DNA of 64,000 nucleotides. Source: Octopus vulgaris. Taxonomy: Eukaryota. Below, piece by piece: positions 3,598-62,214 of this stretch. The DNA lies in NCBI GenBank assembly GCA_951406725.2, contig OX597814.1, positions 122,884,001 through 122,948,000 of the forward strand. The letters run 5' to 3'. The position numbers were made by a program, and so were the translations under genes. How positions within the stretch are numbered: the first letter of the stretch is position 1; the number at the start of each line of letters is the position of its first letter. The notes under the pieces are model-generated. The model made no database searches and was not told where the DNA came from. It saw only the letters and a list, made by a program, of their open reading frames with translations.

Positions 3598-6362
3598 AAT
3601 GATAGGTACAAATCTAAAACTGTATATTGAGTACTGAATTTGCAAATTTCTTATCATTGGTCCATAGAAGTGTTATTTCTCCCTTATTTTTCTGACCACG
3701 TCAGTGTTCATCGGGTGGCCGACTTCCACAACACAGCATTTTATACTACAGTTACACATGTATGTATATCAGGTCTGTTGTGCTTATATTTTATTGAGGT
3801 CTTCACTGGTACATTCTACCAGTATTTTTTTTTTATTATGAGTGGCTATGGCTTCTACCATATTGTGAGTTCATAGTATCCTATCTGCGTCATGTCTCAT
3901 CGGTAGATAATACTGTGATGACATTTTTAGACAACTGCTTATGATATGCGTGATATCTTCAGTGTAAAGCTATCACGCCTTTGCTGCATTTCTATCCCTT
4001 TTGTGCATCAGGTATTTGGTTGATATTTCCTGTTCCTGGATTGCAAACGCATACCCTTCAAAGTGGGAGGTAGTAATCTGGCTATTGGTCCATGATAAAC
4101 TGCTTTGATGATCGATGTTACCATCATCACGGAGCTTTCTACTAACATATCCATGCCTAGTCTTCTGCTCATACAGGCTCATCCGTTCATCTGGTGATAT
4201 GTTGCGGTAGAGTCGTGCAACTTCTTTGAGCATGTATTCTAGGTTATCAGACAATGAGTGTTGCTCAAAGAGCTGCCTTCTAAGTCTTATGATGTTATCA
4301 ACCTCATGTATGCAGACTTGGTCAAGGGATCTACTTCGACACTTGGTGGTTAAAAGATGTTGCCGGGGGGGATATGATGCGATATTCAAAAGCATTTTAG
4401 ATCGATGTTAAGCCTCTACCGCCTTGTTTTCGTTTTAGGTAGAGGCGGTGTACACCACTGTTTATGCGGAAATTATGTGTGCTTGTTAGTATTTTTCGGT
4501 TTTTCACATCAATGGCTCGGATCTCATCAAGCGTCCAATCAAGCATCCCTAATGTTGGTATAGGTACTGGCACTGAAAACACATTGTTGGTCACTGTTTT
4601 ATTGAATGCAGGGAGTTCTAAGGTCCAAATTTTATTTATTCAACTGTTATATTCTTTAGTGATAGTGTTTTGTTACAGGCACCATTATAAGATATATTTT
4701 CATCCACCCCTAGATACCTGTAATATTCTTCGTCAGATACAGGGCAAACAGTCAAATGATTGATGGAGATGTTGCTAGTTTGGTTTATAGTCTTCCCCCT
4801 TTTCACAATCATATAACATTTATCTTGACCAAACTCCAACCCTACATCCTTTGAAAATGTTGTAATTAGGTCAAGGCTCTTTTTCATCTCATGCATATTC
4901 TTCGCATAAAGATTTAAGTCATCCACAAAGAAACAGTGTGTAATTTTAGTATTTCTGTTACCTTGTGAACCAGTGAGATACCTTCAGACCGCCTTAACAA
5001 AGGGTTTACAGAAAGTATACACAACATCACAGAGAGGCTGTCTTCTTGGAATATGCCTTTGCGATATTGTATTCTATCGGTGATAATACAGTCACTCTTT
5101 GCGTTTAATTTCAAGATGGTGGCCCACGATGAAGTCAGGTCAGGTATGGCTTTGACTATTCTCACTAGAACTTTAGCAAACTGAAGGGCTTCTAGCATCC
5201 ATGAGTGAGGAACAGATTCAAAGGCCTTCTTGCAGTCTAGCCACATTGAAACTAGGTTGTTCCTATGCTCTCGCACCTCAGACAACACAGTTTTGTAGAT
5301 TAACAATTGCTCGGTACATCCTTCTTCCCAGCCGCTTGTTTTGCTGTGATAATGTTATTGGTTTAACAATGGTCGTAGAGAAAGAGGTTTAAACACTCTG
5401 TATATATTTTGTACATTAAGTTCTGGCATGCAATTAGCCGGTAGCTTTTTTGCCATGTGGGTGGTTCTGCATTTGGGGATCAATTTTGTCTCTGCCAGAG
5501 CTAGCCGGTGTGGTATGCTACTGTTCCCAATGAAAGCTTGCCGGTACAGATTGATAAGATATGGTCGGTAGAATGTTTGCTTCTTGTACCAATATCCAAC
5601 AATCAAGTCTCTTCTAGGAGCTTTTCCATTTTGGAGTTTCTGGATCAGAGTTTGCAGGAGTTTCACCATCAATGTTGTATGTCTTGGATGTAACGCAGAA
5701 GTAATAACTTTTTCGGGTTTCTTCCAGCCACAGAGCATCTTGGTTAAATTCCTCCTCTTCACTCCAGATTTTCCTCCAGAAGGAGTCTATGTCTTCTTGT
5801 GAAGAAGCTTCCATAATGTTTACTACTCCTCCTCTCATGTCTCTATCTTCTGATGTCGAAGTTTTTCACTGACAGCTTTTAGCTCCTGCTCGAGGGTAAT
5901 CAGTTTGAAAGTGAGTGTCTTCTTTTTGATGTCTCCAAACATCACATCTATCTCCTTCTTCACTTTCTGTTGGTGGGACGTATAATGATTTGCTTGTTTG
6001 CATGCAATAAGCATCATTACATGACTGATGGTCTTCCGTAAGACAGATATCTTTTTCTCTGTCTTCAAAACCCATGATGTTACTTTCCTTATTTCGGTTT
6101 TGCTTACTTTTTGAATATCATTCATGTACTGTTTTACAGGTGTAGCCAGCGCATATAGACAGGCGTTAATCTGCCAGTATGTGAGTTCATCATACTGTTG
6201 TAAATATTCATCACCAATTTCGTTAACAGCTTTTATTACCGTATCTGGTGGTATTTATACTTACTTTGCTAGAGAATACTTTCTCCTCGACAAAGTCCTT
6301 CAAAGCCAAAGTTCTTTTTCTCGGGAAATTTCAGTAAGGGTACATTTCACCGGCATATAATA
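3598..6362 (-). mobile_element. R4-clade non-LTR retrotransposon, degraded (RT + zinc knuckle + partial RLE)
   Basis: Consecutive minus-strand ORF pieces: WLDCKKAFESVPHSWMLEAL, KGIFQEDSLS, (F)VDDLNLYAK, FGQDKC, YRYLGV, RLYLKRKQGGRGL, FAIQEQEISTK, ending FRFVPIII; many frameshifts. Confidence 0.9.
4636..5306 (-). pseudogene. Reverse transcriptase core of the R4-like element (disrupted)
   Basis: RT motifs D..KAF.SV.H, GIFQ.D.LS and xDD split across ORFs 4914-5306 and 4636-4926. Confidence 0.88.
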
Positions 6363-8528: not shown

Positions 8529-9100
<572 letters not shown>

Positions 9101-12579: not shown

Positions 12580-13420
12580 TGATCACCAAAGCAGTCTATC
12601 ATGGACCAACGACCAGATTACAACCTTTCTCTCTACAATCCAGGAACAGGAAATATCAGCCAAATACCTGATGCACAAAAGGGAGAGACGTGTAAGAAGA
12701 GCAGTAAAATGTGACAACCGATGCAGACTTTGTGGAGTTAACACCGAGGATATTACCCACATCATAAGCATTTGTCCGAAAAAGGCATCACAGTATATCT
12801 GCTGATGCGACATGACGTTGTAGGTAGGACGCTGTATAATGAGGTCCGTCGAAAGGATAACTCCGAGGACAAAGAAATAAGAACCCACTGTATGGTAGAA
12901 GCCATAGCCACTCATAATAAAAAGGAGTACTGGTGGAATGTCCCAGTGAAGACCTCAATAAAATGTAAACACAGTAGACCTGATATAGTGATTTGTGATA
13001 GAGAAGAGAAACTGTGCATAGTCGTGGAAAGTAGTTGCCCAGCGGATATTAACATAAAGCTCAAGATCAGTGAAAAGGAGAAAACCTACGCTGAATTATT
13101 GAGAGATGTGTAGTTTCTCTATCCAGATTACAAGTTCAGGTTTATACCTGTAATTATCGGGACACTGCCATATGTAATACACTGCCTAAATACCAATCTT
13201 GAAAAATTAGGCTTCTCAAAACCAGAAGGGAGAAAGCTAATTCGAAAACTACAAATCCAAGCCGTCACTGGAATGGTAAAACCTGTAAAACTTTCCAGAA
13301 GCTTATCATTTAAGTATATAGAAGCATGTCTAGTTATGCTAGTATATGAACGAGAATACAAGAATACATACATGATACTAAGCATACAAATCTGCACATA
13401 TGCATAAATACCCTGTTACT
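12580..13420 (+). mobile_element. R4-clade LINE 3' fragment (same family as 3598-6362)
   Basis: DHQSSLSWTN..IQEQEISAKYLMHKR..CDNRCRLCGVNTEDITHIISICP..RHDVVGRTLY..RPDIVICD..VESSCPAD..EKEKTYAEL..FIPVIIG; 3' UTR appears to resume at ~13768-13873. Confidence 0.9.
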
Positions 13421-16081: not shown

Positions 16082-16494
16082 CGGCGAGCTAGCAGAAACG
16101 GTAGCACGCCGGGCGAAATGCTAAGCGGTATTTAGTCTGCCGCTACGTTCTGAGTTCCAATTCCGCCGAGGTCAACTTTGCCTTTCATCCTTTCGGGGTC
16201 GATAAATTAAGTACCAGTTACGCACTGGGGTCGATGTAATTGACTTAATCCGTTTGTCTGTCCTTGTTCGTCCCCTCTGTGTTTAGCCCCTTGTGGGTAG
16301 TAAAGAAATAGGTATTTCGTCTGCCGCTACGTTCTGAGTTCAAATTCCGCCGAGGTCGACTTTGCCTTTCATCCTTTCGGGGTCGATTAAATAAGTACCA
16401 GTTACGCACTGGGGTCGATATAATCGACTTAATCTGTTTGTCTGTCTTTGTTTGTCCCCTCTGTGTGTAGTCCCTTGTGGGCAGTAAAGAAATA
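16082..16494 (+). mobile_element. SINE group B dimer with 10 bp TSD
   Basis: AGAAACTAGA at 16072-16081 and 16495-16504; internal junction aaagaaata|ggtatttcg at 16310/16311. Confidence 0.9.
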
Positions 16495-25040: not shown

Positions 25041-25458
25041 TATTTCTTTACTGCCCACAAGGGGCTACACACAGAGGGGAGAAACAAAGACAGATAAACG
25101 GATTAAGTCGATTACATCGACCCCAGTGCGTAACAGGTACTTATTTAATCGACCCCGAAAGGCTGAAAGGCAAAGTTGACCTCAGCGGAATTTGAACTGA
25201 GAACGTAGCGGCAGACGAAAATACCTATTTCTTTACTACCCACAAGGGGCTAAACACAGAGAGGACAAACAAGGACTGACAAACAGATTAAATCGATTAT
25301 ATCGACTCCAGTGCGTAACTGGTATTTAATTTATCGATCCCGAAAGGATGAAAGGCAAAGTCAACCTCGGCGGAATTTGAACTCACAACGTAGTGCCAGA
25401 CGAAATACAGCTACGCATTTCGCCCGACGTGCTAATGTTTCTGCCAGATCGCCGCCTT
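25041..25458 (-). mobile_element. SINE group B dimer
   Basis: Two units, junction near 25225; imperfect TSD tggaagtagaacaca / tggtagtagaataca. Confidence 0.87.
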
Positions 25459-31344: not shown

Positions 31345-31845
31345 GGAGGCGCGTGGCTTAGTGGTTAGGGTGTCAGCATCATGATCGTAAGATTGTGGTT
31401 TCGATTCCTGGACCGGGCGACGCGTTGTGTTCTTGAGCAAAACACTTCATTTCACGTTGGTCCAGTCCACTCAGCTGGCGAAAATGACTAACGCTGCGAT
31501 GGACTGGCGTCCCATCCAGCTGGGGAACACACACGCCATTGAAACCGGGAAAACGGGCCCATGAGCCTGGCTAGACATTAAAAGGGCGCATTTAGTGGAA
31601 ACGCGAGGCCTAGTGGTTAGGGTGTCAACATCATGATCGTAAGGTTGCGGTTTCGATTCCTAGATGGGGTGACGCGTTGTGTTCTTGAGCAAAACACTTC
31701 ATTTCCCGTTGCTCCAGTCCACTCAGCTGGCAAAAATGAGTAACGCTGCAATGGACTGGCGTCCCATTCAGCTGGGAAACACATACGGCATTGAAACCTG
31801 GAAACCGGGGCCATGAGCCTGGCTAGACTTTAAAAGGGCGCATTT
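31345..31845 (+). mobile_element. Two head-to-tail tRNA/CORE-like SINEs (group C)
   Basis: Each ~250 bp unit has A box tggcttagtggttag, B box gtttcgattcc, gtgttcttgagcaaaacactt core, gc(g/a)atggactggcgtccc block and taaaagggcgcattta end. Confidence 0.85.
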
Positions 31846-32100
31846 ATTTTTTATTTATATTTACTATTATCTTTCCAACAGATAGCATATTGCGAATGAG
31901 GATCTTCTCGAGCCGATCTTAAAATAAAAGGCATTTCAACCATATCCATCAGTATCTATTAGGACCTTATTTATTTTTTATTTATATTTACTATTATCTT
32001 TCTAACAGATAGCATATTGCCAATGAGGATCTTCTCGAGCCGATCTTAAAATAAAAGGCATTTCAACCATATCCATCAGTATCTATTAGGACCTTATTTA
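31846..32100. repeat. 127 bp tandem duplication
   Basis: ttactattatcttt... starts at 31861 and 31988; the two copies are nearly identical. Confidence 0.9.
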
Positions 32101-41817: not shown

Positions 41818-41965
41818 AATCCAAACATGAACAAAGAGAAAACAAAACAACGCGAGGACGTGGAACAAGTATAGTATTATTGGACGGTCAGGAAATGAAA
41901 GAAAGGAGGATTTAACGTTTTGAGCGGAGCTCTTCGTCAGAAATAGAGAAAGAAAATCGCCAAGA
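41818..41965 (-). mobile_element. Short hammerhead-bearing repeat (same family as 46881-47095)
   Basis: Minus 41910-41944: attt-CTGACGA-a-gagc[tcc]gctc-AAAA-CG-TT-aaat (G12 replaced by A). Confidence 0.62.
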
Positions 41966-45507: not shown

Positions 45508-45542
<35 letters not shown>

Positions 45543-45546
<4 letters not shown>

Positions 45547-46358
45547 CAACAATTGAGGGTAAAATTAATTAATTATTAATCAATTTCACCAAGTGTTCAG
45601 TATGCAAAGGGACCATTTAAGGCGAATTCAAATTATTACATTATATAAAGGGCTTAGTAAAATAAATTACTTCGCCGCATACTGAACTCATTAGAAATAG
45701 CAGCTAAAAAGCTTTTTAAAACTATTTCTAATACTTAAGAAAATCTCTCATATAAAGTTTTTAGCTGCTATTTCTAATGAGTTCAGTATGCGGCGAAGTA
45801 ATTTATTTTACTAAGCCCTTTTATATAATGTAATAATTTATTCGCCTTAAATGGTCCCTTTGCATACTGAACACTGTGAAATTGATTAATAATTAATTAA
45901 TTTTACCCTCAATTGTTGAAATTATAATTAATCTCCCTCTAATTAATGCTTCGATTTTACCGAAAAAAGCATAGCGTTTGATGATTTTAACCCACGCTGG
46001 TGGAAAGGGGGACAGAAATTCTTCACTTGCTTATTTTGGGTTTGTTGGCACTGTTAGTAACGAGCGAATCTTCGAAAGGGTATGTTCTTACTTTCAGTGT
46101 TTCCAAATCCAAACCAAGGAATTTCTGAGCTGAAGATAGAAGTGTTGTTTTGACTAATCTTGAAACGTACGTACTCAAATAACCTTAGCATTTGATTTTT
46201 AATGTCCTTACCCCCAAACTTTTGTGAGTTGAATTAGGCAAACGCTATATATGAGAGAGATTTTCTTTAAGTATTAGAAATAGTTTTAAAAAGTTTTTTA
46301 GCTGCTATTTCTAATGAGTTCAGTATGCGGCGAAGTAATTTATTTTACTAAGCCCTTT

Positions 46359-46366
<8 letters not shown>
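45543..46366. mobile_element. (TA)n-flanked PLE-like element: inverted segment plus partial tandem repeat
   Basis: 45543-45712 is the reverse complement of 45755-45922; 46249-46366 is the reverse complement of ~45641-45754 and directly repeats 45755-45829. Confidence 0.8.
46126..46177 (+). ncRNA. Type I hammerhead ribozyme motif
   Basis: tgag-CTGAAGA-taga..tctt-GAAA-CGTACG-TA-ctca: canonical core, palindromic stem III, GUA cleavage triplet; stem II base imperfect. Confidence 0.68.
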
Positions 46367-46390
<24 letters not shown>

Positions 46391-46395
<5 letters not shown>

Positions 46396-46835
46396 TCCTA
46401 GGGCTATACAACGGTGGTGTACCCCCTACTGTCACGTTCTTGTTAGATTGACAGTATACAACCATTCTATCGCCCCACCACCGTACATGTCTCTACGAGA
46501 GATTTAGAAATTCAATATTTCTTATTTTGATAATCAGTGAATAAACTTCACTGAGTATACATATATACAATTATGAAGTCGAGGCAAATATCACCAGCCG
46601 GCCGGTGTCTGCTACTCTAGACCGATGAAGGACAATGATCCTGAAACACGGTGTCCCTAGATGCAGTTCCGGCGGCCGGGGGTGTTTGTCTCCCCTTCGT
46701 ATAAGTATATAAGGACACAGGGAAAGAAATGTGTCGAAGCTATCAGGAGGCGTTCGATGCCTCCTAGGGCTATACAACGGTGGTGTACCCCCTACTGTCA
46801 CGTTCTTGTTAGATTGACAGTATACAACCATTCTA
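46391..46835 (+). mobile_element. 367 bp monomer with ~79 bp terminal direct repeats (PLE pLTR / retrozyme-like)
   Basis: 46391-46469 is repeated at ~46758-46836; (TA)n on both sides. Confidence 0.78.
46616..46661 (+). ncRNA. Type I hammerhead ribozyme motif (U4C)
   Basis: tctaga-CCGATGA-agga[caatga]tcct-GAAA-CAC-g-GTG-TC-cctaga; GUC triplet; stem I extendable through ctgc/gcag and GC-rich ccgg arms. Confidence 0.7.
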
Positions 46836-46847
46836 TATATATATATT

Positions 46848-46880
<33 letters not shown>

Positions 46881-46881
<1 letters not shown>

Positions 46882-47090
46882 ACCTCGTGAGTACCGTTGG
46901 CGATTTTTTTTCCTCTGTCTTCCCTTCTCGGGATCTTTCCTTCTCCTATGTTTCCGACGAAGAGCTCCGCTCAAAACGTTAAACCTTCCTTCTTCCCTTC
47001 TTTCCTGAGCGTCCAACAATACTATATTTGTTCCACGTCCTCGCGTTGTTGTGTTTTTTTGTTTTTTTTTGTGTGTTTTCTTGTTTGGAT

Positions 47091-47095
<5 letters not shown>
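46881..47095 (+). mobile_element. Short hammerhead-bearing repeat
   Basis: 46950-46984: gttt-CCGACGA-a-gagc[tcc]gctc-AAAA-CG-TT-aaac; homologous to 41818-41965. Confidence 0.62.
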
Positions 47096-47159
<64 letters not shown>

Positions 47160-47482
47160 TTTTTTTTACTGTCTATATTTTTGTACTGTCGTTACTGTCT
47201 CGTTTTTTTACCATTTTTTACCCCTCTGCGAAAAGATCTCAGAAATTGATTTGCTTTTCGCAGGAAGGAAAGTTTCTTGTCGAAGATACGTCTCGCTTTT
47301 ATCCTTCGAAACGTAGAGTAGATGAAACCTTAGCGACTGAAGAAGGGGTTTTTTCGTTGTTTTGTTGTTTTTAAAAAAATGTCCTGTTCCTTTGGTTTGT
47401 GTCTATGTTTTCGTTTCTCTATGTGTTCGACGTCCCTTTGGTGTCCTGTACTCATATATACGCATATGTTTTATTTCTTTTA

Positions 47483-47485
<3 letters not shown>
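47160..47485 (+). mobile_element. (TA)n-flanked T-rich element with hammerhead-like remnants
   Basis: Hairpin ctgcgaaaag/cttttcgcag, gaagga..tccttc-GAAA-CGTA, downstream CTGAAGA; topology not cleanly resolved. Confidence 0.35.
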
Positions 47486-53147: not shown

Positions 53148-53291
<144 letters not shown>

Positions 53292-53299
53292 CAGTATAT

Positions 53300-53560
53300 A
53301 AGCAGTATATAGGCCATACAAAAAATAGCTTACGTAACAGGATGGCGGTGCATAAATCACAAATTAGAAACCCTGATTACCGCAAAATACCGGTCAGCGG
53401 ACACATAGATAGATGTGCTGGAAATGTAAATCCGAAATTTACAACTAACCCGCTCTATAAATTCAGTGACAACGCAACCTTCACACAACGCCAAAATAAA
53501 GAACTATATTTCATAAAAAAATTTAGACCAAGTTTAAACACCCTGGGCCAGGAATACTAA
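53300..53560 (+). pseudogene. PLE GIY-YIG endonuclease fragment
   Basis: In frame: [44 protein letters not shown], with the YIG, R, H, E and LN landmarks. Confidence 0.87.
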
Positions 53561-53729
53561 AACAAAAGATAAGTCCTCCGAAAAGGAGAAGCAAAATTCC
53601 ACCACGGCCGCTACTTTAAACAGACACTCGCTCTGACGGAAATATGCCTTAGTAAAAAAGGAAAAAAATTCTTTCGTGCAAATCTGACCCTGATACATAC
53701 GATACAGCCAAGGGTCAGACCCGATTCTG

Positions 53730-54175
53730 ATTGGTCAACAAGTTGATGACGTCTAGCTCTGCTAGAATGGACAGGACACAAACAGGGGACAGTCATTAGT
53801 CAGAATATTGATGACGTCCTTTTCTGCTTGACTAGTTACCTAACAAGTACAGACAGGGGGCAGATCTAATGTAGCTATAAGTCGTGATTGGGCAGAATCT
53901 GGATGACGTCCCGTTCCGCTTGACTAACGAAGCGACTGGTCAAAACAGGAAACAAACAAGAGGCAGTTATAATGCAGCGATTGGTCAAAATGATGATGAC
54001 GTCCCGTTCTGCTTGAATAAAGCCACCTAACGAAACGATTGGTCAAAACGTTGATGACGTCACGCTACGCTAGATTGACCACCTAACAGGCATTATAAAA
54101 CCGAGCACTTCACAAAACCCACTAGATCCACCCAGCGAACATCCACCATGGGTCATCACAATTGCTTAAGGTAAA
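53730..54175 (+). promoter_or_regulatory. Promoter-like array: five CCAAT(rev)-N9-CRE modules, TATA box, Kozak ATG, splice donor
   Basis: ATTGG/ATTAG at 53730, 53795, 53887, 53980 and 54038, each 14 nt before (T/G)GATGACGTC; TATAAAA 54094; ccaccATGg 54148; aag|GTAAAA 54171. Confidence 0.68.
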
Positions 54176-54538
54176 AATGAATTCCTCGCTCTTTCGGAAA
54201 CATCAATCTTCTGTATTGACCGCTTTCCACCACTTTGATCTGTTTTTTGTATTGAATACGTATCACCACCGTGGGCCACTGCATCGAACACTTTGAACAT
54301 ATACTTCAAACTATATATCCATTATACATGAACTATATATCAACTATACATGAACTCTAAGATGTCTGACTCCGTTGTGTATTATAAATGAATTTCTTGT
54401 GTTTGACGGCATGAGCTGTCTTTTTTTATATATAACTTTTTTTGGTAAGGTTCATTTCAGGAACTGAAACATGTTATAATGTATATATAAAAATTAAAAA
54501 ATTGTATAATACAGCAGCATTTTCGAACTTCATTTTTT

Positions 54539-54601
<63 letters not shown>

Positions 54602-55548: not shown

Positions 55549-56793
55549 CAGGGGTTGGACAAAATAATAATGGAAACACCTAGCATTATAGCATCATAAT
55601 TTTGAAATATCTATAAAACCGTCAAAACCTTGTTTATTTTTATGTTTTTTTTTTATTTATTAGTAGTGTTGTTTAATATGTTTTGCGAAAATTGCTGTTT
55701 CTTTGTAATTAAAATTCAATAAAATGACAGATCTATCGAACTTTCAAAGAGAGCAAATTGTTGGTGCTCATATGGCAGGCACTAGCATAATGAAAACAGC
55801 CAAAATATCTGGTGTATCAAGAAGTACTGTCTTGAAAGTAATGACAGCCTTTGAGAAAGAGGGAAAAACATCCTCGTCGAAACAAAACTCTCGAAGAAAA
55901 CCAAAACTTTCAGATAAGGATCGTCAGACTCGTATACGAATTGTTAGAAAGGATCACAAAAGTACAGCTCCCAGAGTTACTGCCGAGCTTAATGACCACC
56001 TCGAGAACCAAGTTTCCATAAAAACTGTTCGCCGGGAGCTGCACAAATGCGGATTTCACGGGAGCTGCACAAATCCGGATTTCACGGGAGGGCTGCAATC
56101 AGAAAACCACTACTTTCAAAAACAAACGTTGCAAAGCGTTTAGAGTGGAGTAAAAGCTTACAGAATTGGTACCTAGAGCAATGAAAGAATATTATTTTCT
56201 CGGACGAGTCCTCCTTTACCTTATTTCTGACCACCGGCCGAGTATACATGTGGAGACAGCCAAAAGAAGCATTTGACCCAGACTGCTTTCTTCCAACTGT
56301 TAAACATGGAGAAGGATCTGTAATGATCTGGAGGGCTCTATCTTGGAAATCCGCCAGCCCAATGTTTTCTCTTCATGTCAGAATTAAGACTTTTTAAGCA
56401 TTTTATCTGATGAAATACACTCTATGGTTGCGGGACTGTTTCCGGAGGGAAACGCAATCTTTCATCTTGATAATGCACCAATTCAAACAGCTAAAGTTGT
56501 TACTGAATGGCACGAAGAACATTCTAGTGAAGATCAGTGCACAGTTCTCAATATTATTGAACATTTATGGTGCATTTTTGAAAACCAAGTAAGGAATCGA
56601 TATTCTCCACCATCAGTACTAGAAGAACTGGAGACTGTTTTATTTTAAGAATGGGGAAAAATTCCTTTGGAAACAATTAAAACTTTGTATGAGTCCATAC
56701 CTCCAAGTTGTAATTACTGCCGAAGACGGTCCTATCTCATATTAAAATAATTTTGTTTGAAATTTTAATGTTTCCATTATTTTGTCCAACCCC

Positions 56794-61046: not shown

Positions 61047-62214
61047 TCTGAACTAATTGTAGTTTCTGATTTACAGGTGTTTGAACTGAGTCAAGTGTGA
61101 AATGGAGCCTGTTGAGTGTCGAGCAGTGATCCGGTTTTTGTATTTGAAAGGACGCACACCACGGGAGACTTTTGATGAAATGAAAGTAACTTATGGTGAT
61201 GATGCCCCATCATATGACCTTGTAAAACGCTGGCATCGTGAATTCAAACATGGTCGGAACTCTGTGGAAACAGCTCCCAGATCTGGTCGCCCCCTTCTGC
61301 TATTGATGAGGCAACTGTCCGTCAAGTTGAGGCTGCCATTTTGGAAGATCGACGCATAACTATTCGCCAAATAGCCCATGAGATCAAGATTAGTACCGGG
61401 TCTGTGGAAACTATCATTCATGACCATTTGCATATGCAAAAGGTGTCTGCTAGATGGATTCCCAGGTTGCTCACACCTTTCCAGAAGCAAGAACGCGTCG
61501 AGTGCTCGAGGATGAATTTGGAGATGTGCCAAGAAGATGAGTCAAAATTTTTCAAAAGACTGATTACACAGGATGAAACCTGGGTCCATCACGATGATCC
61601 AGAGACCAAAGCCCAGTCAATGCAGTGGAAGCACCATGACTCACCTCCTCTAAAGAAGGCAAAGGTGCAGCCCTCCGCTGGCAAGGTCATGCTCACAGTC
61701 TTCTGGGACCAGGACGGAGTAGTGATGACAGATTTCCTGGCAAAGGGTACCACAATTACAGGAGCCTATTATGCTTCACTTTTGAGGAAATTAAGAGAAG
61801 CTATCAAAATCAAGAGGCAGGGCAAGATCAGCAAAGACATCGACAACGCTCCGGTCCACAACTCGCGTGTCGCCAGATCGGAAGCACAGGCGTGCGGCTA
61901 TGAACTCCTCCCCCATCCCCCCTACTCTCCTGACCTTGCACCCTCTGATTTTCTCCTCTTTCCAGCCATGAAGTTGTTTTTGAAAGTAAAGCATTTCCCA
62001 GATGATGCAGCCTTGATTTCTGAAGTCACGTCGTGGTTGGAGGACCAAGCTGGGGTCTTCTACAAAAACGGTCTCCAGAGCTGCATCAAATGATGGGAGA
62101 AATGCGTACCTCTTGGTGGTTCCTATGTAGAAAAAGACTAATAACTGTGCCAAGTTTCGTTGCTCTACCTGGTATGGGAAGTGGGTCAGGGGCATTACTT
62201 ATTGAACGCCCCTC

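Follow-up and report, generated by a model that had tools for sequence, protein, structure and literature searches.

Four blocks of sequence with TA/TG runs between them follow one another in a 64,000-nucleotide stretch of Octopus vulgaris DNA (the window; contig OX597814.1). What are these blocks, and do they belong together? A preliminary description called them mutually unrelated, and in this it was right: the blocks and the runs are present, and the best similarity between blocks reaches only E=0.037. Our search of the genome (2.8 Gb in 227 contigs, dense in microsatellites) showed that they belong to four unrelated high-copy, non-coding families that end in (TA)n and have the architecture of Penelope-like elements (PLEs) (Table 1). 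We consider it probable that the train arose by four independent (TA)n insertions of such repeats, likely trans-mobilised by an autonomous PLE RT/GIY-YIG protein, and that the fourth insertion carries a type-SGC hammerhead fold, by which the element RNA is likely cut after position 47292.

Table 1. Features of the four-block train, with positions in the window
Feature	Position	Strand	Remarks
(TA)n target run left of the train	45511..45544	.	further runs 46359-46392, 46834-46864, 47095-47159, and from 47486
Family 1 inverted arm	45543..45757	-	ends at start site B (unit position about 169-173) against (TA)17
Family 1 direct arm	45758..46369	+	one 546-bp unit and about 75 nt; ends at start site A against (TA)n
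Family 1 minimal type I hammerhead	46126..46177	+	core 46130-46136, GAAA 46162-46165, palindromic stem III, predicted cut after 46173, weak stem II
Family 2 element	46394..46836	+	one 365-bp unit and about 77 nt (80-nt direct repeat); ends at start site A
Family 2 minimal type I hammerhead	46616..46661	+	U4C core, one-base stem III loop (a dimer would be needed), predicted cut after 46655
Family 3 element	46878..47094	+	about 215 bp, monomeric, fixed 3' end at (TA)n
Family 3 minimal type I hammerhead	46950..46984	+	U4C, predicted cut after 46980; G12A in this copy, predicted dead
Family 4 copy	47167..47484	+	3' part of 765-941-bp tandem-forming unit, ends at start site A; about 60 nt of tail deleted at 47462
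Block S	47287..47297	+	stem III strand 47287-47291 (pairs with 47311-47315), H17 = C47292, predicted cut after 47292, stem I strand 47293-47297 (pairs with 47332-47336)
Block G	47304..47315	+	stem II strand 47304-47307 (pairs with 47345-47348), GAA 47308-47310, stem III strand 47311-47315
Block C	47332..47348	+	stem I strand 47332-47336, CUGAAGA 47337-47343, one extra A, stem II strand 47345-47348

A first look at the genome returned 1,622 to 2,780 candidates per family. Exact motif matches, which are lower bounds, number 343, 1,586, 10,247, and 6,491 for families 1 to 4, with none in the controls. Families 1 and 2 (units of 546 and 365 bp) form head-to-tail arrays, often with an inverted 5' arm, and among the matches listed the family 1 arrays reach at least 13 units. 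The family 4 unit measures 765 to 941 bp in 13 tandem loci, and most copies of this family are monomeric. Partial tandems and inverted 5' copies are present in families 1, 2, and 4, which also have two fixed 3' ends (a tail); family 3 has one such end, and no tandem or inverted copies were seen among its sampled copies. The 3' end adjoins a TA run in 34/38 family 1 arms, 54/80 family 2 arms (internal fragments included), and 24/29 family 3 copies against a background of 5.4%, and family 4 ends adjoin (TA)n as well. The preliminary description had proposed (TA)n-targeting, ribozyme-bearing families of non-autonomous retroelements and had suggested (TA)n flank enrichment as a check. The enrichment is far above background, and there are several such families, all of PLE type; their tandem and inverted architecture had been overlooked. 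An older fragment of family 3 (85%), with the canonical U4 but G12A, lies at 41839-41955 on the minus strand.

The train is a rare pile-up of four separate insertions, the extreme of a mild clustering, and not a unit. Of 130 sampled loci, 4 (two of which coincide) have a neighbor from another of the four families within 300 nt, in either orientation, and in the same sample such a neighbor was found once at 700-1000 nt. The order of the train is repeated at none of the 120 best-hit loci except the window's own. These counts give no support to the train as a recurring or functional unit.

How, then, do such insertions form? Copies of families 1 and 2 terminate at either of two start sites, A or B, and the arms pair A with B in 39 of 46 inverted pairs (15/16 in family 1 and 24/30 in family 2, best-hit samples included). 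None of the 46 is A/A or B/B, the other 7 involving internal fragments; two-armed insertions hence have opposite start sites in 39/39 classifiable cases. Judged by eye, four of five inverted pairs of family 4 follow the same rule. Our literature search found no published count for a rule of one start site per arm, and Frangieh et al. (2024, PMC11167929) report, in the accessible text, no strand difference in vitro, whereas the rule is counted here. The families share partial tandems, an inverted 5' copy, a (TA)n bias, and a tail with the Neptune and Naiad PLEs as portrayed in the accessible text of Craig et al. (2021, PMC8557442), where the tail is often at one end only. They share two RT start sites with the PAc PLE, for which the same part of Frangieh et al. 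gives a predicted protein dimer extending both strands. Unlike these PLEs, they have no ORF, and their tails are longer (about 55, 97, and 50 nt versus 30-40 nt).

We hypothesize that a dimeric PLE protein would nick both (TA)n strands and prime one cDNA at site A and another at site B, with a multimeric or circular RNA as the template for both. The cDNAs would run across unit borders and yield tandem and inverted arms, and the TA runs left flanking each insertion would attract further ones. The genome does contain PLEs with open 781-codon RT and GIY-YIG frames, and these likewise terminate in (TA)n. Out of 6,136 candidates, 40 PLE loci were compared, and no autonomous PLE among them shares sequence with families 1 to 4, the matches found being neighboring insertions.

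One 5'-truncated autonomous PLE lies in the window itself, between (TA)70 and (TA)25 (53290-54542, plus strand). Its last 86 codons are 98.8% identical to the 781-codon RT/GIY-YIG frame of locus L145, which has the CxxxxCxxC linker typical of Neptune. The 3' repeat of the truncated copy holds, by eye, a candidate minimal type I hammerhead (54437-54479, plus strand) with U3/A8 in place of the C3-G8 pair of other copies and with further changes. Other PLE RT lineages (L469, L470, L009, L235, and L519; 27-62% identity to L145) occur near sampled copies and are candidate partners of the families only. Elsewhere in the window are frames that we take to be mariner and Tc1 transposase fragments (61242-62093 and 55709-56143, plus strand) and broken frames presumably of non-LTR retrotransposon type (3973-5786, minus strand, and 12742-13113, plus strand). 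Two-copy tandems of SINE-like units of 184-252 bp lie at 8687-9053, 16127-16494, 25041-25405, and 31350-31846.

Blocks 1 to 3 had been reported to contain three clear type I hammerheads. All three lie where they had been placed, but "clear" overstates the case, since each is imperfect. Stem II of block 1 has a U.U at its base in 28/33 monomers and is a clean 4-bp stem in 3/33, and its strand can alternatively pair with the core. In block 2, all 33 readable monomers carry C4, a natural change known to lower activity and still to allow viroid infectivity (Perreault et al. 2011, accessible text); the closing pair of stem I, kept in 31/33 monomers, is mutated in the window copy. Block 3 in the window has AAAA in place of the GAAA of 24/28 readable copies, and the core reads CCGACGA in 20 and CTGACGA in 6 of 30 position-ordered copies. 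Sampled copies of these families are 94-98% alike. Because the copies of blocks 2 and 3 carry damaging changes, the proposed cutting of read-through RNA into monomers is unlikely at this locus. A loose type I descriptor finds 11 window positions with at most one core mismatch, a count made without a shuffle control, and Rfam gave no match at gathering score. Among 150 of 210 Rfam rows, the only matches are to miRNAs and arise by chance in microsatellites; a near-perfect palindrome of microsatellite sequence at 882-985 is the origin of these false matches.

Families 1 and 2 fit the non-LTR retrozymes, which are non-coding tandem repeats with one type I hammerhead per unit and are thought to depend on PLEs (Cervera and de la Pena 2020, PMC7229834; Li et al. 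2026, 10.64898/2026.07.22.740005; both from the accessible text, the latter with type I hammerhead models only). As that class is defined there by type I hammerheads, families 3 and 4 differ from it, family 3 being monomeric and family 4 having a type SGC ribozyme and 765-941-bp units. Expression as linear and circular monomer RNA is a feature of the class in these sources. The earlier picture of TA arrays and hammerheads is of an already known kind; what is new, and well supported, is the setting of a rare RNA topology in block 4, for whose activity the evidence is indirect.

Block 4 had been credited with mere hammerhead remnants, and its permuted ribozyme had gone unnoticed. Read by its letters and predicted pairing, it is a complete hammerhead at 47287-47348 with the strand order S-G-C, a non-circular permutation that is knotted. 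Diverged relatives have GAAA at a fixed spacing upstream of CUGANGA; the cleavage block lies still further upstream, and the order is therefore S-G-C. The core (CUGANGA, GAAA, and UH with H not G) is intact in the window copy, which is the single S-G-C match in the window, against none in 30 shuffled windows. Type II or III registers were also considered and, by eye, offer no stem I. Stem II is the weak element, with four pairs that include two G.U and have about 0 kcal/mol as a duplex.

Could the pairing be no more than a by-product of kinship among the copies and of the pattern's degeneracy, with no ribozyme behind it? The kinship of the copies makes shuffle controls overstate significance, and, because the copies are related, the shuffle numbers are not probabilities. 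Moreover, the patterns themselves imposed the core letters CUGANGA and GAAA on the genome-wide samples. The full pattern nevertheless gave 4,699 genome matches versus 2 in the control and the G-C half pattern 5,377 versus 1, and in 56 of the 92 genomic G-C matches block S, which the half pattern does not impose, supplies the missing strands of stems I and III; most of the others are truncated at block S. Pattern matches in metagenomes and viruses, which are due to chance, do so in 0/116 and 0/22 cases. We aligned the window copy with 61 of the 92 G-C matches, chosen regardless of pairing, leaving out duplicates and copies whose homology stops short of block S. In this alignment of 62 copies, 92.9% of 912 cells pair, against 38-57% in slid-partner controls, and 8 of the 15 pairs (8 of the 11 in stems I and III) change on both sides, along different splits. 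Within 42 copies preselected for pairing, the two-sided changes fall, by eye, on several different branches of the flank tree, two of them via G.U intermediates, and H17 is A, C, or U in all 42 and never G. Stem II is 96.3% paired in the 62 copies, with one strand imposed by the pattern, an invariant C-G closing pair, and no two-sided change. The window copy and its 30 best matches are, besides, recovered without the pattern. All this strongly contradicts the by-product reading, to which we give hardly any credence. A second SGC family (6 loci) has flanks unrelated to family 4, the same order, and another stem III. Its loci (L553-L558) have AT-rich flanks, end in (TA)n, and have a stem II of only 2-3 pairs.

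PLE hammerheads commonly act as dimers, and Lunse et al. in 2017 reportedly found them working in this way. The active species could then be an intermolecular or tandem-dimer hammerhead of ordinary topology, with S, G, and C contributed by different units or RNAs and no pseudoknot in cis, and the stem III strands of subfamily A are indeed self-complementary around ACGT. In other subfamilies and in the second family, however, these strands are not palindromic, most copies are monomeric, and the linkers between the stem I and stem II strands measure 2-6 nt, as in validated cis SGC ribozymes, which makes a dimer very unlikely in our estimate. A "frozen tandem dimer" as the origin of the permutation is an appealing idea yet unsupported, the deeper subfamilies having no palindrome.

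Does the permuted fold cut? We took a census of family 4 5' ends, anchored on a 3' motif, at every one of the 93 places within the first 38 Mb of contig 1. With arms treated as independent, 23 of 66 arms at risk end at 0..+19 of the predicted cut versus 1 of 43 at -20..-1 (Fisher p=3e-5), and the background elsewhere is 4.7% per 20 nt. Few of these ends coincide with the cut; most lie between +5 and +11, where a pyrimidine-rich stretch gives way to the first TA-like bases. This pile-up just downstream is likely a footprint of cleavage in vivo, and about 4,700 genomic SGC copies likely cut their own RNA. According to our proposal, about a third of the family 4 templates that reach the ribozyme would have cleaved themselves already, because of which copying would stop there, and the stopped cDNA would be joined to the target through the last TA-like microhomology, which lies 5-11 nt inside the cut. 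The ends of family 1 and family 2 are not gathered at their predicted cuts (1/35 within 0..+19 and 0/80 within 0..+17, respectively).

A different origin of the pile-up deserves weight, though we rate it as rather unlikely: the S-G-C fold would be real and ancestral but now inactive or only protein-binding, and RT would stall at an upstream GAAGG/CCUUC helix. GAAGG, complementary to the stem II strand, is conserved in 39/42 family 4 copies (window 47262-47269) and could block the S-G-C fold or stall RT, and stem II is weak. The position of most ends downstream of the cut, rather than on it, also suits stalling. Family 2 ends cluster 18-26 nt downstream of the predicted cut, inside a long stem, and therefore structure alone can truncate these elements. 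In addition, Frangieh et al. (2024, PMC11167929) state in the accessible text that hammerhead cleavage is not needed for PLE insertion in vitro, and no RNA-seq ends were seen there at the cut. Against stalling, a stronger hairpin 30-65 nt upstream (-12.1 versus -9.1 kcal/mol) has no such pile-up, and the ends lie beyond the CCUUC strand, where the GAAGG/CCUUC helix has already been copied. The loss falls to 0/43 right past the cut, and stems I and III are still paired through many subfamily changes. An anti-stem-II strand with different letters is found upstream of block S in the second SGC family too, a possible anti-ribozyme switch. No RNA holder of block 4 is on record; contigs of four runs cover it, a kind of sequence that cannot show RNA ends or expression, and neither finding counts here as evidence.

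In the accessible text of Eckert et al. (2023, PMC10085705), type-SGC hammerheads (HRIMA-1 and a variant) are reported from metatranscriptome contigs only and from none of the known organisms in RefSeq 85. The fold in block 4 resembles these in its S-G-C order, intact core, 5-bp stems I and III, short linker from stem I to stem II, and one extra base after A9. It differs in its weak stem II and in having no clear fourth helix, whereas in the published ribozymes stem II is GC-rich with 5 bp and the stem I-II helix, required for SGC-3, is clear. A helix joining the flanks of stems I and II scores 11.2 for cognate partners versus 10.7+/-0.19, a small excess over swapped partners (1 of 300) with no common register. 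In contrast to the metatranscriptome cases, thousands of copies are found here in animal chromosomal DNA within PLE-type repeats, and Octopus, Mollusca, Metazoa, and Eukaryota are absent from the supplement text of that study. Our literature search found no SGC hammerhead in an animal genome or retroelement and type-SGC only in Eckert et al. 2023, prior notice being possible in subscription journals, Repbase, and Dfam, which lay outside its scope. The truncation pile-up at a ribozyme also sets family 4 apart from known PLEs as described in the accessible sources.

We lean, if only slightly, toward a broader reading, in which this would be the first ribozyme with a non-circular permutation from a cellular genome: an SGC hammerhead that is active, arose in or entered animal PLE-type elements, has diversified into two or more families with many subfamilies, is held back by the conserved upstream anti-stem-II strand, and has its cleavage recorded as a truncation footprint. 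The strict rule of one start site per strand would show by what route a dimeric PLE enzyme makes inverted insertions out of a single RNA.

Since 2023, a non-circular RNA permutation has been known from unassigned metatranscriptomes, without host or function. The high-copy animal case gives it a host and supplies compensatory changes that can be placed on a phylogeny, as well as material for structural studies. Surveys of hammerheads in eukaryotes have a blind spot for permuted forms because they use type I-III descriptors. For the PLEs, the pile-up of family 4 5' ends is likely genomic evidence that one of their hammerheads cuts the retrotransposition template, and the rule of one start site per arm opens the origin of PLE tails and inverted ends to direct testing.
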